64,000 nt of DNA from Lachnoclostridium sp. (GTDB lineage: Bacteria > Bacillota > Clostridia > Lachnospirales > Lachnospiraceae). Both the position numbers and the translations under genes were made by a program. Below the pieces are notes generated by a model, which saw nothing but the letters and a program-made list of their open reading frames with translations, made no database searches and was not told the origin of the DNA. Below, one piece after another: positions 37,588-58,672 of the stretch; within the stretch, counting starts at the first letter, position 1, and each line of letters begins with the position of its first letter. The stretch is from the NCBI GenBank assembly GCA_021770065.1, contig JAETRR010000012.1, forward strand, positions 207 through 64,206. Direction: 5' to 3'.

Positions 37588-38682
37588 TTAGAAAATTCTT
37601 CTTACTGCAAGAATGGGCTTGTAGTTTGCCGGTGAAGTATATTTGATTCCGGTGGCTGCCGTACTTGCATGTACGATGGTATTGTTGCCGCAGTAAATGC
37701 CGACATGGCCGCTGTAACAGATGATATCGCCCGGCTGTGCATCTGCAAGGCTCACACCGTATCCCACACCGCGCATTGCGCTGGATGAATGGGGAAGTCC
37801 TACGCCGAAGTTCGCATATACGCTCATTACGAATCCGGAGCAGTCCGCGCCGTTTGTAAGGCTGGTTCCGCCATATACATAAGGATTGCCGACAAACTGG
37901 CTTGCAAAAGATGCTACTGCATTTCCGCTGCTGCTTCCGCCGCCGTTGCCCAAAGCCGAATTCTGGCTGCCGGACTTGGCTGCCGCTGCTGCCGCCTTAC
38001 GCTTTCCTTCCTCTTTGGCTGCCTCTTCCTTGGCCAGTCTGGCCTCTTCCTCGGCCTTGGACTCTGCCTGGACGAAATCTGTCCGAAGGTCCACGAACTC
38101 TTTGGATACCCAGCCATCGCCTTCCTCTATGGATACCTGTACCCAATCGTCTGTCTCATCTGTTACCGTAAGCTCTTCCTCTTCTCCGATAAGACCTAAG
38201 ATACTGGACTCCGTACTGGCTTCACTTCTTACACGAAGGGTTTCCGTCGTAACGGTGGCAACTCTTTTTCCCACTTCCGCCGCCAAAGCTTCCGCTTCGT
38301 CGCCTGTAACTACATAATCACTCTTTACATATCCGGTTACGCTTCCGGAAGTAATCTTGAACCAGCCGTCCACATCCTCCTCTATGGTTCCTGCCGACTC
38401 GTCATAAAGCTTTCCAAGAATCTCGCCTTCCTCACTGGGCAGGCTTCTTACATTTACATAATCATTTACCTGTGCAATACAGATACCGTCAAATTCGGAA
38501 GGTGTCAATTCTTCTATCACCTTTTCATCTACGGCAGGGTCTGCTGTATGTGCTTCTGTCATTACGGATGCAATTCCTTCTTCTCCGAAAGCGGAAAGAT
38601 TGCTGGCTTCCGCCCTCAGTCCTCCAAAGCTGAAACAAAGCGCACCGGTCAGACATAGGGTTGTCAATTTATATACTCTCAT
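37588..38682 (-). CDS. secreted SH3b-repeat NlpC/P60 (C40) peptidoglycan peptidase
   Basis: It has a signal peptide, two SH3b-like repeats (VNVRSLPSEEGEILGKL and LRVRSEASTESSILGLI) and the C40 catalytic motif DCSGFV, followed by a downstream His (GHVGIY). Confidence 0.88.
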   Translation of the reverse strand: MRVYKLTTLCLTGALCFSFGGLRAEASNLSAFGEEGIASVMTEAHTADPAVDEKVIEELTPSEFDGICIAQVNDYVNVRSLPSEEGEILGKLYDESAGTIEEDVDGWFKITSGSVTGYVKSDYVVTGDEAEALAAEVGKRVATVTTETLRVRSEASTESSILGLIGEEEELTVTDETDDWVQVSIEEGDGWVSKEFVDLRTDFVQAESKAEEEARLAKEEAAKEEGKRKAAAAAAKSGSQNSALGNGGGSSSGNAVASFASQFVGNPYVYGGTSLTNGADCSGFVMSVYANFGVGLPHSSSAMRGVGYGVSLADAQPGDIICYSGHVGIYCGNNTIVHASTAATGIKYTSPANYKPILAVRRIF

Positions 38683-39041
38683 TTTTTAGCTATCCTCCGT
38701 AAGCTTCTCAACTCAATTATTACAAATTTGTTAAGACTTATGAAAGAATTATAACAGCATGAATACTTGTTGTCAACCGTTTCTACAATTTTCTAGATTT
38801 TTTATATTTAATAATTTGTAACAGTTCAAACGGCAGCAAGACAGCCCTTTTCCATAAACTGCTAATGGTTCTCTATTGACTTTTCCAGTTTTTTTGCTAA
38901 AATATAAAAAACAATAATTGTTATCGTTATTAAAACGATATGTGAATTTATGCACGAAAAAACTGTGCGGATCAATGAAACACCCTTCGGGTATACCTTT
39001 ATGCACAAAAAACCCGTGCGAATTAATGAAAGGAGGTTTTT

Positions 39042-39425
39042 ATGACAGTCTTGAAGCACAGCCGTCAGCGGGAATGTATTAAAAATTTTCTTCTTTCCAG
39101 ATACGATCACCCCACAGCGGATACTATCTATATAAATGTAAGAAAAGAATTTCCCAACATCAGCCTTGGAACCGTCTACCGCAATCTTGCTCTTCTGACA
39201 GACTTAGGAGAAGTTATCAAGATCACTACCGACGGCGCTGACCGTTTTGATGCTCATGTGGAACCGCATTCACATTTTGTCTGCAGAAAGTGCCATAGCC
39301 TTCTGGATATTCATATGAAAAATGAAGATTTCATCAACACCGAAGCACAGAAGGAATTTTCCGGCCGGATTGAGGGGCATACGGTACAGTATTACGGCAT
39401 CTGCGGCAATTGTCTGGATAAGTAA
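39042..39425 (+). CDS. Fur family transcriptional regulator, PerR-like
   Basis: Contains the winged helix HPTADTIY...SLGTVYRNL, the metal sites HSHFVCRKC and CGNC, and sits beside a rubrerythrin gene. Confidence 0.85.
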   Translation: MTVLKHSRQRECIKNFLLSRYDHPTADTIYINVRKEFPNISLGTVYRNLALLTDLGEVIKITTDGADRFDAHVEPHSHFVCRKCHSLLDIHMKNEDFINTEAQKEFSGRIEGHTVQYYGICGNCLDK

Positions 39426-39457
39426 AAATTTTACTTTAAAAATTTTAAAAATATCGC

Positions 39458-39505
39458 TTGACGCTTGTTCTGATTTGTGATATCTTAATAACAGTAATCA
39501 TTACT
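39458..39505 (+). promoter_or_regulatory. rubrerythrin promoter with an overlapping Fur/PerR-type 6-1-6 palindrome
   Basis: TTGACG (39458..39463), a 17-nt spacer, then TATCTT (39481..39486). The perfect palindrome AGTAAT-C-ATTACT lies at 39493..39505. Confidence 0.6.
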
Positions 39506-39550
39506 ATTTTAGAGCACAAAACATTTGTATAAGAAAAGGAGAATAAAACC

Positions 39551-40093
39551 ATGAAGAAATTTGTATGTCAGGTATGCGGCTATGTTCACGAAGGAGATTC
39601 TGCTCCCGAAAAATGTCCCCAGTGCGGTGTTGGACCGGAAAAGTTTACTGAGCAGGCAGAGGGCCTTTCCTGGGCTGCCGAGCACGCAGTAGGCGTAGCT
39701 AAGGGTGTCAGCGAGGATATTCTTGAGGACTTAAGAGCTAACTTCAACGGCGAGTGCTCCGAGGTTGGTATGTATCTTGCTATGGCGAGAGTTGCTCACA
39801 GAGAGGGCTATCCGGAGATCGGACTTTACTGGGAGAAGGCAGCTTACGAAGAGGCAGAGCATGCTGCTAAGTTTGCAGAGCTTCTGGGCGAGGTTGTTAC
39901 CGACAGCACCAAGAAGAACCTGGAGATGAGAGTTGCCGCTGAGAACGGCGCTACTGCCGGCAAGTTTGATCTGGCAAAGCGTGCTAAGGCTGCTAACCTT
40001 GATGCAATTCATGACACCGTTCATGAGATGGCCCGTGACGAGGCAAGACACGGCAAGGCATTCGAGGGACTTCTGAAGAGATACTTCGGCTAA
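39551..40093 (+). CDS. rbr: reverse rubrerythrin (N-terminal rubredoxin-like domain plus diiron ferritin-like domain)
   Basis: CQVCGY...CPQCG lies at the N-terminus. It is followed by the diiron ligand helices (E...EAEHA, E...ARH). Confidence 0.9.
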
Positions 40094-40130
40094 TCAGAAA
40101 TGCCGCAAGGGTCAATGTTTTGAGGATTTA

Positions 40131-40168
40131 GGGGTATGTTGGAGCAATCCTGCATACCCTTATTTTTC
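40131..40168 (+). terminator. intrinsic terminator after rbr
   Basis: GGGTATG (40132..40138) pairs with CATACCC (40153..40159). It is followed by TTATTTTT. Confidence 0.65.
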
Positions 40169-40196
40169 TTAGGTATTGCAATAGGCAAACCGGAAG

Positions 40197-40670
40197 TTAT
40201 CTCTTTGAGAAAGCTTTTTCAATCATCTCTGCTTTTTCTTTTCGCTGCATCAGCTTGTAGTATTCGCACCACAGAAGCGGAGATTGCAGCGGAATCTTTT
40301 CACCATCCAAAGGCATCCATTCAATGATCTGTTCTTCTTTCAGTGAACAGTCAAAAAGTTTGCCATCTTTCAAAATAGAAAATCCGGCCATGACATCAAC
40401 ATCAATATAATCTATAATGAACTCCATGAATGTTTTTGTCTGATACATGGAATCGGGATTCGGCGGCTTGATTTCTCCCATTTCAGATAAAATTCTTCTG
40501 ACGCATTCAACGTCAGAATCTGCAATCATCAAATCAATATCATTGAAATCTGATGCAATACCCTTGAAATAGAGCAGCATTGACGCACCCAAAGCCCAGA
40601 CAATATTAGATTCATTGAATTGATGCGCAATTTTCTTCAGCAGCTCAATCTTTTCATATGTTCCTGCCAT
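40197..40670 (-). CDS. small pol-beta superfamily nucleotidyltransferase
   Basis: A 157-aa protein. WALGASMLLYFKGI...FNDIDLMI fits the G-[SA]...D-x-D nucleotidyltransferase signature seen in small Lnu/ANT-like enzymes. GGAGG precedes the ATG. It lies 48 nt downstream of the macro gene. Confidence 0.65.
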   Translation of the reverse strand: MAGTYEKIELLKKIAHQFNESNIVWALGASMLLYFKGIASDFNDIDLMIADSDVECVRRILSEMGEIKPPNPDSMYQTKTFMEFIIDYIDVDVMAGFSILKDGKLFDCSLKEEQIIEWMPLDGEKIPLQSPLLWCEYYKLMQRKEKAEMIEKAFSKR

Positions 40671-40718
40671 AATGAACCTCCAAAAAATCCGGTTTGTTAA
40701 TCGGAAGATGCCGCCAAA

Positions 40719-41585
40719 TCAGACCAAAATTTTTTTATAAAGCTCTAAGTCATTGTCTTTAAAGACATTAAAAATGATCCGTTCCATACAATCGCCATGC
40801 TTTTCCAGGAAAGCCGTTACCGTTTTCCATGCGATTTCCGCCGCCTTATCATTTGGAAAATGAAATTCCCCCGTTGAAATACAACAGAACGCAACAGATC
40901 TGATATCATGTTCCAGGCAGCATTGCAGGACATTTTCATAACAATTTTGCAAATCCCGGCAGAGCATATCATTCAGCCGGCCGTATACAATCGGCCCCAC
41001 TGTGTGAATCACATAATTGCAGGGAAGATTATAGGCTTTTGTTAAAGTAGCCGTGCCTGTCGGCTCTTCGTAGTTCCTGCCATATTTCTGCCGCCTCCGG
41101 CTCATAATACGGCTGCATTCTTCTCTAAGCTGCATTCCCGCCGCACTGTGAATGGCATTGTCAATGCACCTGTGGCAGGGTACAAAGCAGCCCAGCAGCT
41201 GTGAATTAGCGGCATTTACAATGGCACCGGCCTCAAGTCTCGTTATATCTCCCTGCCAAAGTGATATTTTCCTCCCATAAGGAGACTTACTGTTAAATGC
41301 TTCCTTTATTGTCGGAATATCCGCCAGTTTTACGATTCCCTTTGCTTCCCGCTCATCCTGCAGATATTCGTCCTGTAAATCCGTCAATTCATCGGGAAGC
41401 TCTCTCGGCATACGGATATTCATAAGAGAACGGATTGCATTTTTCTTTTCCTCTAAACTGTATTCCCCGGTTTCAAGTTCTTTGTATTCCACCGAGTCTG
41501 CTTTTAATTTTTCCAGAAGAACCTCTGTCTTTTCTGCTCTATTCATTGCTGCCACCATACTTTCCTCATATAATGTCCCGGTCAT
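40719..41585 (-). CDS. macrodomain protein (ADP-ribose hydrolase, SirTM-linked zinc-macro type)
   Basis: ISLWQGDITRLEAGAIVNAANSQLLGCFVPCHRCIDNAIHSAAG is the macro fold, with the C-x-H-x-C zinc motif that I recall from staphylococcal SirTM-linked macrodomains. There is a ~110-aa helical N-extension. Confidence 0.85.
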   Translation of the reverse strand: MTGTLYEESMVAAMNRAEKTEVLLEKLKADSVEYKELETGEYSLEEKKNAIRSLMNIRMPRELPDELTDLQDEYLQDEREAKGIVKLADIPTIKEAFNSKSPYGRKISLWQGDITRLEAGAIVNAANSQLLGCFVPCHRCIDNAIHSAAGMQLREECSRIMSRRRQKYGRNYEEPTGTATLTKAYNLPCNYVIHTVGPIVYGRLNDMLCRDLQNCYENVLQCCLEHDIRSVAFCCISTGEFHFPNDKAAEIAWKTVTAFLEKHGDCMERIIFNVFKDNDLELYKKILV

Positions 41586-41655
41586 TCCTTCAGCTCTACG
41601 GTTTCACTTTCCTGAAAAAGCATAATGCCATCTCCTTTACCTATTCGCCGGGCTT

Positions 41656-41684
41656 ATTATATCAAATCGGGTCAATCGGGTCAA
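41656..41684 (-). promoter_or_regulatory. near-consensus sigma-A promoter for the macro/NTase genes
   Basis: Minus strand reads TTGACC (41684..41679), a 17-nt spacer, then TATAAT (41661..41656). It is embedded in four GGTCA/TGACC half-sites. Confidence 0.65.
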
Positions 41685-41816
41685 TGCGCATGACACGATT
41701 GTGACCTAATCCTGATTTGACCTGATATTTTCATTATGCTCGCAAATGAGGGCGAGTATTAACATCAAAAGCCGTCCTCTCTGAAAACCAGCCAGTAAGC
41801 ACATAAATCTGCTGTC

Positions 41817-42740
41817 TTATAATTGTTTCAGTATCTCTCCAATGTCTGCATTGATACAGACGGAGCGCTTTGCAATTTTCTCGGGTACATAGGCTTCCCC
41901 ATAATTGATACAGACATAAACTGCCTTCGGATTCGCTGCCGTCATCTGCCAGAACGGATATTTTATAATCCCGGGTGTATTAAACCCGACACCGAGTTCC
42001 AGCAGAACGGCCTTTTTCTGCTCCGTTTTTTTCAGAAAATTGTTATATCGTCCTGCTGCCTCATGCCAGTTTTCATCTTCCACAAAATACTGATCACAGC
42101 GAAGGTGCATTGTCATATTGCCGCCGCATACGGGACATTTCGGCACCATATAAGAAGGCACCAGACAGTCATGCCTCGCCCGATCCATCCGGCGGAATAA
42201 ATCCTCTGCATCATAAATCTTCGGATGACACCCCTTTTCACATTGAATATTACCGTAATCTCCCTGTGTTGCAAAAATACGCTCCGTCCGAAACCCGGCT
42301 TTTTGAAACTGGTGATCAACATTCGTTGTTAAAACAAAATACTCTTTTTCTTTTACAATTTCATAAAGCCGATGATATAAAGGCAGTGCAGGCGGAAGGA
42401 AACGGTTTATCATGCTGTGTTTTGACCAGTAACCCCATTTTGCCTCCTGTGTGGGAAACGGATAAAAACCCGCCGCATACATATCCGTCATATACGCAGT
42501 ACCATATTTTTCTATAAACTCACCAAAGTTACGGGTAAACCGTTCCCCGCTATAAGTAAGTCCGGCAGCAGCAGACATTCCTGCCCCTGCACCAATCAGT
42601 ATGATATCAGCCGCCTTTATCAGCGCGGACACATGTTCCATCTGCTCCGCATATGGAATATTTTGAAAAATGTAATCTCCGGCAGGCACACCGTTTAAAA
42701 TCCGCGAACCATTAATTCTCTTTTTCTGACTCTGCTTCAT
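41817..42740 (-). CDS. SIR2 family protein, class M (SirTM-like NAD-dependent ADP-ribosyltransferase)
   Basis: Contains the Rossmann motif GAGAGMSAAAG and TTNVDHQF. ATQGDY stands where canonical sirtuins have the catalytic HG. The zinc ribbon is CEKGC...CPVCGG. Confidence 0.8.
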   Translation of the reverse strand: MKQSQKKRINGSRILNGVPAGDYIFQNIPYAEQMEHVSALIKAADIILIGAGAGMSAAAGLTYSGERFTRNFGEFIEKYGTAYMTDMYAAGFYPFPTQEAKWGYWSKHSMINRFLPPALPLYHRLYEIVKEKEYFVLTTNVDHQFQKAGFRTERIFATQGDYGNIQCEKGCHPKIYDAEDLFRRMDRARHDCLVPSYMVPKCPVCGGNMTMHLRCDQYFVEDENWHEAAGRYNNFLKKTEQKKAVLLELGVGFNTPGIIKYPFWQMTAANPKAVYVCINYGEAYVPEKIAKRSVCINADIGEILKQL

Positions 42741-42805
42741 AATCCATCAACCCCTTTTCGCACTGCACCGCGCCGCTTCTTCCTGGTATTTAACCGTTCA
42801 CCAGA

Positions 42806-42825
42806 TGTAATTATAATCATTACAG
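42806..42825. promoter_or_regulatory. PerR-like box upstream of the SirTM gene
   Basis: TGTAATTATAATCATTACAG contains TTATAAT-C-ATTACAG and shares the 10-nt core TAATCATTAC with the rbr operator. It lies ~70 nt upstream of the start at 42740. Confidence 0.45.
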
Positions 42826-43093
42826 CTCATAACTATACAATAGCACCTTTTTGTTGTAATGTCAACAATTACAACTATTAATAAAGAAAATTTTACGCAC
42901 ATGCCGGATATTCGTTTCGTTCTTACACTTGCCTAAAATATTCCTAACCACATTACCAGCTCCATTCCCAATATGCATAAAATCATTCCCAAGTGTTGAC
43001 ATTTCTATTTCCATGGTATAATATATCAGTATCTACACATAGTATTTAAAACTACATGTTGAAATATAGTTATTCAAAAAAGGAGATGTCCAT

Positions 43094-43762
43094 ATGAAGT
43101 TTGAATTTCAAATCAAAGATCCCGGCAGCGCCATCACTCATTTTATCGGCATGCTCATGGCCGCATTTGCCGCAACCCCCTTACTGATCCGTGCTGCCAG
43201 GCAGCCGGATACCATCCATCTAATCTCACTGGCCATTTTTATCGGAAGCATGATCCTGCTTTACGGAGCCAGTACCACCTACCACACCCTGAACCTTTCC
43301 GAGCGTTCCAACCGAATTCTCCGAAAGATCGATCACATGATGATATTCATCCTCATCGCAGGTTCCTACACCCCCGTATGTCTGATCGTACTGGGCGGCA
43401 GAACCGGCTACAGCCTGTGCGCGCTCGTATGGGGCATCGCACTGGCCGGAATCCTGATAAAAGCATTCTGGATCACCTGCCCGAAATGGTTCTCATCCAC
43501 ACTATACATTGCCATGGGCTGGGTCTGCGTGCTGGCCTTCACCCAGATCCTCAACTCCCTCTCTCCTGCCGCTTTCGGATGGCTTCTGGCCGGCGGAATC
43601 ATCTACACCATAGGCGGCATCATCTACGCACTGAAGCTTCCCCTCTTCAATGCACGCCACAAGTACTTCGGTTCCCACGAGATCTTCCACCTCTTCGTCA
43701 TGGGCGGAAGCATCTGCCACTTCATTATGATGTACGTATTCGTAGCCCCCATGCCAATCTAA
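43094..43762 (+). CDS. hemolysin III / PAQR family membrane protein
   Basis: A 7-TM protein containing SAITHFIG, STTYH and the C-terminal HEIFHLFV motif. The promoter TTGACA...TGGTATAAT lies upstream. Confidence 0.88.
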   Translation: MKFEFQIKDPGSAITHFIGMLMAAFAATPLLIRAARQPDTIHLISLAIFIGSMILLYGASTTYHTLNLSERSNRILRKIDHMMIFILIAGSYTPVCLIVLGGRTGYSLCALVWGIALAGILIKAFWITCPKWFSSTLYIAMGWVCVLAFTQILNSLSPAAFGWLLAGGIIYTIGGIIYALKLPLFNARHKYFGSHEIFHLFVMGGSICHFIMMYVFVAPMPI

Positions 43763-43938
43763 TTCAGCGTCCTAAACCAAACAGCATTCGACGTAATTGC
43801 TTCTGTTATTTATCAAATGCTATACCAGCACATCATAACCAATTGCCAAAAACAATAAAACCCCTTATAATAAAAGAACCTTCCCAATTTTAAACAGGAA
43901 GGTTCTTTCACAAAATAACCCTCACACCCCCAAAACCA

Positions 43939-44196
43939 GGTCCGGCCGTGAAAGAAGCCGGCATGCTTTTCCGATATCAAGTGTCCAGCTGTTCGCGTAC
44001 ATCCTGTCTGATATGGACGAACATTGTCCAAGATATCTTCTGATTTGCAGATACATTCATAGAGCAATGTTCGTACAGAGCAGACAGGGTGTACGAGAAC
44101 CGTCCGAACCGTTGTGATAAGGAGGGACCCACAAAGTGGGAGGATTCCTTATTGCTGGATATGGAAAAGCATGCCGGCTTCTTTCACGGCCGGACC
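43939..44196 (+). other. 258-nt element bounded by perfect 34-bp inverted repeats; candidate structured RNA or MITE-like/invertible element
   Basis: 43939..43972 is the exact reverse complement of 44163..44196. Nested internal helices pair 43996..44010 with 44081..44095, 44017..44026 with 44065..44074, and 44117..44123 with 44146..44152. Confidence 0.6.
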
Positions 44197-44222
44197 GTCC
44201 CCCCAGGAAGCAAAATTCTCCC

Positions 44223-44504
44223 ATGAAAGCATACACCTACATCCTAAAATGCTCCGACAACACCCTCTACACCGGCTGGACCACAGATCTCCCCAAACGC
44301 CTGAAATCCCACAACCAGGGCAAAGGCGCCAAATACACCCGTTCCCGCCTCCCGGTAACCCTTATCTATTACGAAACCTTCGAAACCAAACAAGAAGCCA
44401 TGTCCCGGGAAGCCGCCATCAAAAAACTAAGCCGCCCCCAAAAGGAACGGCTTATCAGTTCAAAAAACCACGACTATCAAAACACTACTGCAGCAAAGTC
44501 ATAG
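44223..44504 (+). CDS. GIY-YIG nuclease family protein (YazA/UPF0213-like)
   Basis: The protein begins [39 protein letters not shown], so GIY-YIG core motifs are present. The ATG is at 44223. Confidence 0.88.
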
Positions 44505-58386: not shown

Positions 58387-58672
58387 CGTAACGCCTCCTT
58401 ATAAAATAAAGCCCCCATCCTGTAAAAGGACGGAAGCCCCGCTTCTGTTATACCACCTGTTACAACATGCTGTCACATGCGTTTCCTTTTAACGGAGGAA
58501 AACCGTCAGTGCCTAAGAAAATGACGGAGCCATCTTCTTTCAGCCTGCAGCTCGGAAGTGATCTTCGGAAAAATCCTACTTGCACCGGGCTTCCACCCTC
58601 CCCGGATCGCTTTGCCGTTCGGATAAATCTTACTCTCTTCGTCTTCGCTTTTACTTATCGTTCACTAGTATA
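58387..58672 (-). promoter_or_regulatory. T-box leader of ileS
   Basis: The minus-strand promoter is TTGACA (58696..58691), 18 nt, TATACT (58672..58667). Stem I contains AGAGAGTAAG, and an AUC codon occurs in GAAGAUCAC. The T-box core ACAGGTGGTATAACAG maps to 58446..58461. A terminator plus U-run maps to 58403..58442. Confidence 0.8.

Follow-up and report, generated by a model that had tools for sequence, protein, structure and literature searches.

The 64,000-nucleotide stretch of Lachnoclostridium sp. DNA analyzed here (contig JAETRR010000012.1; hereafter the window, whose numbering all coordinates follow) carries three genes head to tail on the - strand. These encode a class M sirtuin (SirTM; 41817-42740), a zinc-dependent macrodomain (40719-41585), and a small nucleotidyltransferase (NTase; 40197-40670). 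We found that the SirTM promoter is bracketed by two copies of the inverted repeat TGTAAY-N7-RTTACA, and that this pair of sites is conserved ahead of SirTM operons in related genomes, the majority of which also have an Rrf2-family gene nearby. We therefore consider it likely that the locus is a minimal sirtuin-macrodomain pair controlled by a trans-encoded Rrf2 repressor of the YwnA/HypR/SaiR type, and that it would be derepressed by thiol-oxidative stress. The gene positions are those given in an earlier note on this DNA, and its description of the three open reading frames, the 48-nt gap between the macrodomain and NTase genes, and the neighboring perR and rubrerythrin (rbr) genes was accurate in each respect.

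The SirTM promoter, its two operators, and a probable Rrf2 repressor

A promoter scan placed the SirTM promoter at 42837-42865 on the - strand, where TTGACA and TATTGT hexamers are separated by 17 nt and accompanied by a TG extension. Operator 1 (42855-42873, - strand; TGTAAT-TGTTGAC-ATTACA) overlaps the -35 hexamer, and operator 2 (42806-42824, - strand; TGTAAT-GATTATA-ATTACA) begins 12 nt past the -10 hexamer, such that the two sites lie 49 bp apart on either side of the promoter. These are the only exact matches to TGTAAYN7RTTACA in the window, in which 0.31 matches would be expected even at up to one mismatch. The sole other near match, TGTTATACCACCTGTTACA at 58446-58464, differs at one position and is a single site that probably arose by chance.

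Relatives of SirTM are abundant, with at least 8000 candidates scored, all at E ≤ 1e-5. From species-representative genomes we assembled 80 Lachnospiraceae-type loci having 60-85% SirTM identity. Across these loci (1.116 Mb) there were 188 exact operator sites, as compared to 2 in the reversed sequence of the same loci and none in unrelated gut-Firmicute loci totaling 0.63 Mb. The sites formed a pair 40-50 bp apart in 77 of the 80 loci, and the pair always stood ahead of the gene that opens the SirTM-containing operon. Over 82 loci, the spacing was 49 bp in 56 cases and 42 bp in 12. A consensus drawn from the promoters of 54 related operons revealed a conserved cassette comprising TGTAACtATTGACATTACA (the operator 1 consensus among relatives), followed by gTGnTATAGT and then AGATGTAAY-N7-RTTACA, to which the window conforms. 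Half-sites were retained among 84 site pairs, and the spacer of operator 2 was variable.

In 58 of the 80 loci the flanking DNA carried an Rrf2-family gene, mostly directly upstream and in the same orientation, and the other 22 had none within about 8 kb. In 38 of 82 loci this gene has a single operator some 43 bp ahead of its start codon, a placement suggestive of autoregulation. The Rrf2 protein of these relatives belongs to the cluster-less YwnA type (1ylf, E = 3.6e-34; B. subtilis YwnA, 1xd7, E = 3e-23), having a conserved cysteine in HENPxxxCPVG and no 3-Cys Fe-S motif. A characterized member of the HypR/SaiR/YwnA group is S. aureus HypR, which is about 23% identical to YwnA. The HypR operator, verified by electrophoretic mobility shift assay, is TAATTGTAACTA-N3-CAGTTACAATTA, that is, TGTAAC-N7-GTTACA, and HypR leaves this DNA upon oxidation by NaOCl or diamide through formation of an intersubunit disulfide (PMC6067689). 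Members of a HypR/YwnA regulon can be recognized by a repeat of this type over the promoter, of which the window has two perfect examples, and by a cognate Rrf2 gene beside the operon, of which no homologue was found in the window.

In related genomes, Pfam identified several optional members of the operon: a YwnB-like NAD(P)H-binding protein, a PNPOx-like protein with or without a 2x[4Fe-4S] ferredoxin domain, and a SnoaL_2 protein. Additional dual TGTAAY-N7-RTTACA promoters occur apart from the SirTM operon in the related loci L060, L061, L071, and L075, where they lie ahead of YwnB-like, small PNPOx-like, and flavin-reductase-like genes. These promoters outline a candidate regulon that is small and rich in redox enzymes. 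The window contains neither an Rrf2 gene nor any YwnB-like, PNPOx-like, or SnoaL_2 gene, and the cis copies carried by relatives are missing in this lineage.

From the positions of the motifs, their conservation, and their association with Rrf2 genes, we infer both binding of the operators by the repressor and the nature of the inducing signal. SirTM would be transcribed from the promoter bracketed by the two Rrf2 operators. Because there is no Rrf2 gene in the window, the regulator must act in trans and would be encoded outside of it, as in the 22 related loci. By analogy with HypR, the repressor would release DNA when its cysteines are oxidized under disulfide, hypochlorite, or electrophile stress. 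Gating of an Rrf2 repressor by thiol oxidation in turn implies induction by thiol-oxidizing stress. SirTM would then mono-ADP-ribosylate a protein target other than an operon-encoded lipoylated GcvH-L, and the zinc macrodomain would remove the ADP-ribosyl modification.

A dual-operator promoter with a redox repressor predicts that inducers are disulfide, hypochlorite, or electrophile stress rather than peroxide acting via PerR. The co-regulated redox proteins form a small set of candidates, as substrates or as partners, in gut commensals that are abundant. A more specific version, that lone pairs in gut Lachnospiraceae are core members of a YwnA/HypR-type thiol-stress regulon and that their targets are the co-regulated YwnB-like, PNPOx-like/ferredoxin, and SnoaL_2 proteins, is possible but less likely than not, and we advance it only tentatively. 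If correct, it would amount to an ADP-ribosyl switch acting reversibly on enzymes of redox detoxification, and would name a signal, a regulator, and candidate substrates for orphan minimal SirTM systems. The literature we searched contained no connection between SirTM and Rrf2/YwnA, and the Rrf2 wiring of SirTM appears to be new.

Several points weigh against control by an Rrf2 repressor. With no homologue in the window, a regulator of this kind is hypothetical in the present genome. The link between Rrf2 and the operators consists of genomic association and an operator match to HypR, a distant member of the subfamily. Operator 2 is also within two mismatches of the B. subtilis PerR consensus, and PerR might bind there in addition. 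An internal promoter, described below, may leave the macrodomain and NTase genes partly independent of the operators. The target of ADP-ribosylation and the activities of both enzymes are predictions, and the survey covered Lachnospiraceae-type SirTMs of at least 60% identity.

The operators could instead be bound by a regulator other than the neighboring Rrf2 protein, in which case the Rrf2 gene would be a mere member of the regulon. In favor of this explanation, 22 of the 80 loci, and likewise the window, have the operators but no Rrf2 gene within roughly 8 kb. Against it, a single site stands at a fixed distance of about 43 bp ahead of the Rrf2 gene in 38 loci, and no other regulator family recurs in the neighborhoods. 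The operator is also of the same type as the HypR operator, and HypR is a characterized member of the same Rrf2 subgroup. We regard a different regulator as unlikely.

The sirtuin, the macrodomain, and the nucleotidyltransferase

The 307-residue sirtuin matched S. pyogenes SirTM (SpySirTM; PDB 5a3a) with E = 1.7e-55 and the SirTM half of a fungal fusion protein (8rsn) with E = 4.6e-30, and it scored only 21 bits against Pfam SIR2, which is under the gathering score. Class M is defined by QG in place of HG, Asn118 and Arg192, the motif GVGx[NT]TP, and linkage to a macrodomain (PMC4518038). Where the catalytic HG would be expected, the window's protein has Q159-G160 (in ATQGDY), which aligns with Q137-G138 of SpySirTM and is invariant in 13 homologues. 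Residues N140, D142, and R214 align with N118, D120, and R192 of SpySirTM, GVGFNTP at 250-256 aligns with the pyrophosphate motif, and the zinc ribbon is formed by C167/C171/C202/C205. A zinc macrodomain gene accompanies the sirtuin gene in the window and lies directly downstream of it in 74 of the 80 related loci. The protein is thus a class M sirtuin, as the earlier note had deduced from the substitution of Gln for the catalytic His, and it is predicted to be a protein mono-ADP-ribosyltransferase.

The macrodomain protein has 288 residues when read from its first ATG, although relatives and gene callers point to M10 at 41558 as the probable true start, giving 279 residues. It scored 301 bits against the NCBIfam equivalog for protein-ADP-ribose hydrolases (NF003163; cut-off 272) over residues 14-287. 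Its best PDB match was MorMacro (8rsi; E = 1.6e-67), with the alignment likewise starting at residue 14. Zinc macrodomains are distinguished by a Cx(4)HxC Zn-loop in place of the glycine-rich catalytic loop and by a NAAN motif (PMC11490716). Both are present here, the loop as C133-FVPC-H138-R-C140 and NAAN at 124-127, and the protein is full length, including the N-terminal three-helix extension. The zinc motif reported previously is therefore real, but its spacing was given as C-x-H-x-C and is in fact Cx4HxC (C133/H138/C140). The protein is a macrodomain of the zinc subtype (MacroD type), with predicted protein-ADP-ribose hydrolase activity. MorMacro, itself a minimal-operon enzyme, does not demodify SpyGcvH-L (PMC11490716). 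SirTM precedes the macrodomain gene in all but three (L036, L048, and L070) of the 80 Lachnospiraceae-type loci.

The third gene starts 48 nt after the macrodomain stop codon, behind a GGAGG ribosome-binding site, and encodes a TM1012-like minimal nucleotidyltransferase of 157 residues. The assignment of a pol-beta fold made previously was upheld by both sequence and structure: the protein matched TM1012 (PDB 4hx0) with E = 1.6e-7, and its AlphaFold model (pLDDT 85) matched TM1012 (2ewr) in Foldseek with a TM-score of 0.84 and E = 6e-10. LnuA, MenT1, and ANT(2'') were more distant matches. The elements G28-A-S30, D44xD46, and D90/D92 are conserved, with G28/S30, D44/D46, and D92 invariant in the family alignment. 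Searches of Pfam and NCBIfam assigned no family and returned only a spurious match to FUBP_C. TM1012 of Thermotoga maritima (2ewr/2fcl/4hx0) shares with it the fold, about 25% identity, the size, and the G-x-S/DxD/D signature. Both are putative enzymes, and in this species alone the gene follows a macrodomain gene.

The NTase is probably co-transcribed with the macrodomain gene, yet it is not a conserved partner of the pair. None of the 80 related loci had an NTase beside the SirTM pair, and none of about 84 loci with NTase homologues (65-89% identity) outside this species had a SirTM nearby. The proposed partnership does not survive this two-way survey, since the earlier note had itself named lack of co-conservation as grounds for abandoning it. 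Neighbors of the homologues were variable, with one copy located between mnmE and mnmG and another beside DUF3783/ApbE. No neighbor was conserved, and the commonest neighboring family appeared in 13 of 77 loci. A macrodomain gene, 32-40% identical to that of the window, was located within 6 kb of the NTase homologue in three loci (L095:9251-10465, L140:7784-8269, and L156:5006-5488). This may be slightly above chance, but the sample is redundant and the signal too weak to build on. A stand-alone TM1012-like NTase, unrelated to the pair, would have been acquired recently downstream of the macrodomain gene in this lineage.

The NTase could nevertheless have become a functional partner of the macrodomain in this species, for instance if both used one substrate or if the NTase modified nucleotides derived from ADP-ribose. 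All contigs with a 100%-identical NTase have the window's own arrangement, with the NTase directly after the macrodomain gene wherever the contig reaches upstream and rbr convergent. The two genes would also share one strong inherited promoter, and three of the roughly 84 homologue loci include the nearby macrodomain genes noted above. Yet the adjacency is confined to one species, those other macrodomain genes are divergent and differently placed, and an 89%-identical NTase (L096) has no macrodomain neighbor. The closest characterized folds are small-molecule and tRNA nucleotidyltransferases (LnuA, ANT(2''), and MenT). Taken together, such a partnership is quite improbable.

The PerR-like motif and the history of the locus

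The earlier note had interpreted the locus as a PerR-controlled, peroxide-responsive module of three enzymes, with PerR bound at TTATAAT-C-ATTACAG and the NTase supplying a third modifying activity. The motif exists: TTATAATCATTACAG at 42811-42825 is the window's only match within two mismatches of the B. subtilis PerR consensus, TTATAATNATTATAA. The 10-nt core GTAATNATTA is shared with the palindrome at the rbr promoter beside perR, and it occurs three times in the window against an expectation of 0.4, two of these occurrences being the two strands of that palindrome. The NTase gene, with its good ribosome-binding site 48 nt after the macrodomain gene and no terminator between, also fits a three-gene unit. 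As a PerR box, however, the motif is at the level of chance, because at least one match to TTATAATNATTATAA of equal quality appeared in 29 of 100 shuffles. It consists of a half-site and the spacer of TGTAAT-N7-ATTACA, the 6-7-6 repeat at 42806-42824. The bases of its right half-site fall within the spacer of operator 2, which is not conserved, so that the 7-1-7 reading resembling PerR arises by accident from the spacer of this lineage.

Related loci provided no sign of PerR control either. Scans with the PerR consensus and GTAATNATTAC across 230 kb upstream of related SirTM genes produced scattered matches without a consistent position, and neither a conserved 7-1-7 box nor linkage to perR was found among related loci. 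Whereas the 6-7-6 repeat is paired in 77 of 80 loci and linked to Rrf2, perR or rbr adjoins SirTM in 0 of 80. One locus had a Fur-family gene, 28% identical, 6 kb away. Nor does the NTase component hold, being absent from all 80 loci and having its homologues (65-89% identity) in unrelated and variable contexts without SirTM. PerR wiring of the module is very unlikely given these results, which remove both it and the NTase partnership as leads for this window. What survives is the general idea of oxidative-stress control, through a different family of regulator.

Downstream and convergent on the cluster are perR (39042-39425) and rbr (39551-40093), which would be unrelated neighbors of the pair. 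A perfect palindrome, AGTAATCATTACT, is situated at 39493-39505, beside perR and a short way downstream of the -10 hexamer of the rbr promoter (TTGACG-17-TATCTT). This palindrome could plausibly be a PerR box of the Fur 7-1-7 type, with GTAAT half-sites that are five positions off the B. subtilis PerR consensus; the papers we found gave no sequence consensus for clostridial PerR boxes. A second perfect palindrome, AACAATAATTGTT, is found at about 38912-38924, just past the perR promoter (TTGACT-16-TAAAAT, 38876-38903), and could be an autoregulatory site, with half-sites unlike those of the rbr palindrome. On the other side, a TrhA/HlyIII gene (43094-43762) is divergent and upstream of SirTM. 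An Rfam scan of 38000-44500 returned a sub-threshold match to mir-944 alone (43990-44101, + strand; 38.5 bits, with the gathering score at 100), located between trhA and a GIY-YIG gene, which is probably a chance hairpin or terminator.

Comparison with relatives also accounts for the 231 bp between the SirTM and macrodomain genes. Among relatives with a long contig, the closest (L001; 87% identity) has the order Rrf2, SnoaL_2, PNPOx/Fer4, SirTM, AlbA_2/HATPase_c_4, Macro. In the window, a remnant open reading frame, MLFQESETVELKE (41582-41623, - strand), retains 13 codons of a deleted SLFN_AlbA_2/HATPase_c_4 gene and ends in a stop that overlaps the first macrodomain ATG. All 13 residues match the start of the intact 448-residue gene between SirTM and Macro in L001. 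An internal promoter-like site at 41656-41684 (- strand; TTGACC-17-TATAAT, TG-extended, 11/12 consensus), upstream of the macrodomain and NTase genes, is homologous to the promoter of the L001 AlbA_2 gene. The scar (41582-41684, - strand) thus keeps the AlbA_2 promoter, ribosome-binding site, and first 13 codons, and the gap reflects a deletion of about 1.5 kb. The deletion would have left a strong promoter ahead of the macrodomain gene, and the macrodomain and NTase genes may be expressed from this second, operator-free promoter. Another relative (L085; 97% identity) has the HlyIII-SirTM junction and the two operators in common with the window, and the gene after its SirTM encodes a different ATPase, AAA_14/DUF4143-like. 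The SirTM/Macro junction looks like an insertion hot spot.

Such mobile-looking ATPase genes (AlbA_2/HATPase_c_4 and AAA_14/DUF4143-like) between SirTM and macrodomain in relatives, together with the occurrence of SIR2 domains in defence systems, are what could be said for an NAD-depleting, SIR2-based anti-phage system, a role also raised in the earlier note; it is extremely unlikely, because a PADLOC scan of the SirTM, macrodomain, and NTase proteins gave no match at E ≤ 0.01, every class M signature and a class M macrodomain partner are present, the pair is stably tied to a redox-type regulon in 80 species, and the GC content of the locus is only slightly under the window average.

Comparison with known systems

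The earlier note had reported that GcvH-L, LplA2, and oxidoreductases are absent from the neighborhood, and tblastn extended this result to the entire window. GcvH-L, LplA2, OYE, and LLM queries came from two extended operons, one in S. pyogenes and one in a Staphylococcus (L176 and L177), which served as positive controls and have the order LLM-GcvH-L-Macro-SirTM-LplA2, with OYE. In the window these four queries yielded only noise at E ≤ 1, and in 85 related SirTM loci they yielded one OYE match and otherwise none. A search using GcvH and LplA queries from E. coli and B. subtilis had also given no match, and is superseded by the S. pyogenes and Staphylococcus queries.

Lone SirTM/Zn-Macro pairs are a described category, the minimal operon, with Lachnospiraceae among the hosts and an unknown target (PMC4518038, PMC11490716). 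The locus is, by its protein classes and gene order, a regular minimal pair, and the pair itself is not new. Minimal operons of Methanobrevibacter oralis (MorMacro), Enterococcus faecalis, and Treponema pedis (Rack 2015, Ariza 2024) likewise place SirTM beside a zinc macrodomain, have the QG/N/R residues, GVGxNTP, and Cx4HxC, and are without GcvH-L, LplA2, OYE, and LLM. There is no essential difference in the proteins. In the literature searched, no dual-operator promoter, linkage to a YwnA-type Rrf2 gene, or co-operonic YwnB-like, PNPOx-like, or SnoaL_2 gene was found for minimal operons.

The extended operons of Staphylococcus and Streptococcus have the same writer and eraser families as the window, and both have a connection to oxidative stress. 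Unlike the window, they carry the GcvH-L substrate, the ligase, and oxidoreductases, and place Macro before SirTM rather than after it. The extended operons in L176 and L177 have neither TGTAAY-N7-RTTACA sites nor an Rrf2 neighbor, whereas the window has the sites.

The closest regulatory parallels are S. aureus HypR (hypR-merA), B. subtilis YwnA-ywnB, and B. anthracis SaiR. MerA, a flavin disulfide reductase, is under HypR control from a single operator, whereas here an ADP-ribosylation pair is among the controlled genes and there are two operators 49 bp apart. The HypR regulator is encoded in cis, in contrast to the window, and Cys33 of HypR is not obviously conserved in the Rrf2 proteins of relatives. 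Even so, those proteins are of the YwnA type and have a conserved cysteine at the start of the dimerization helix, and a YwnB-like gene is frequent in their operons, as in YwnA-ywnB. The HypR half-site and spacing are the same as those in the window, and both HypR and the relatives of SirTM have an operator over the promoter and a regulator gene with its own site.

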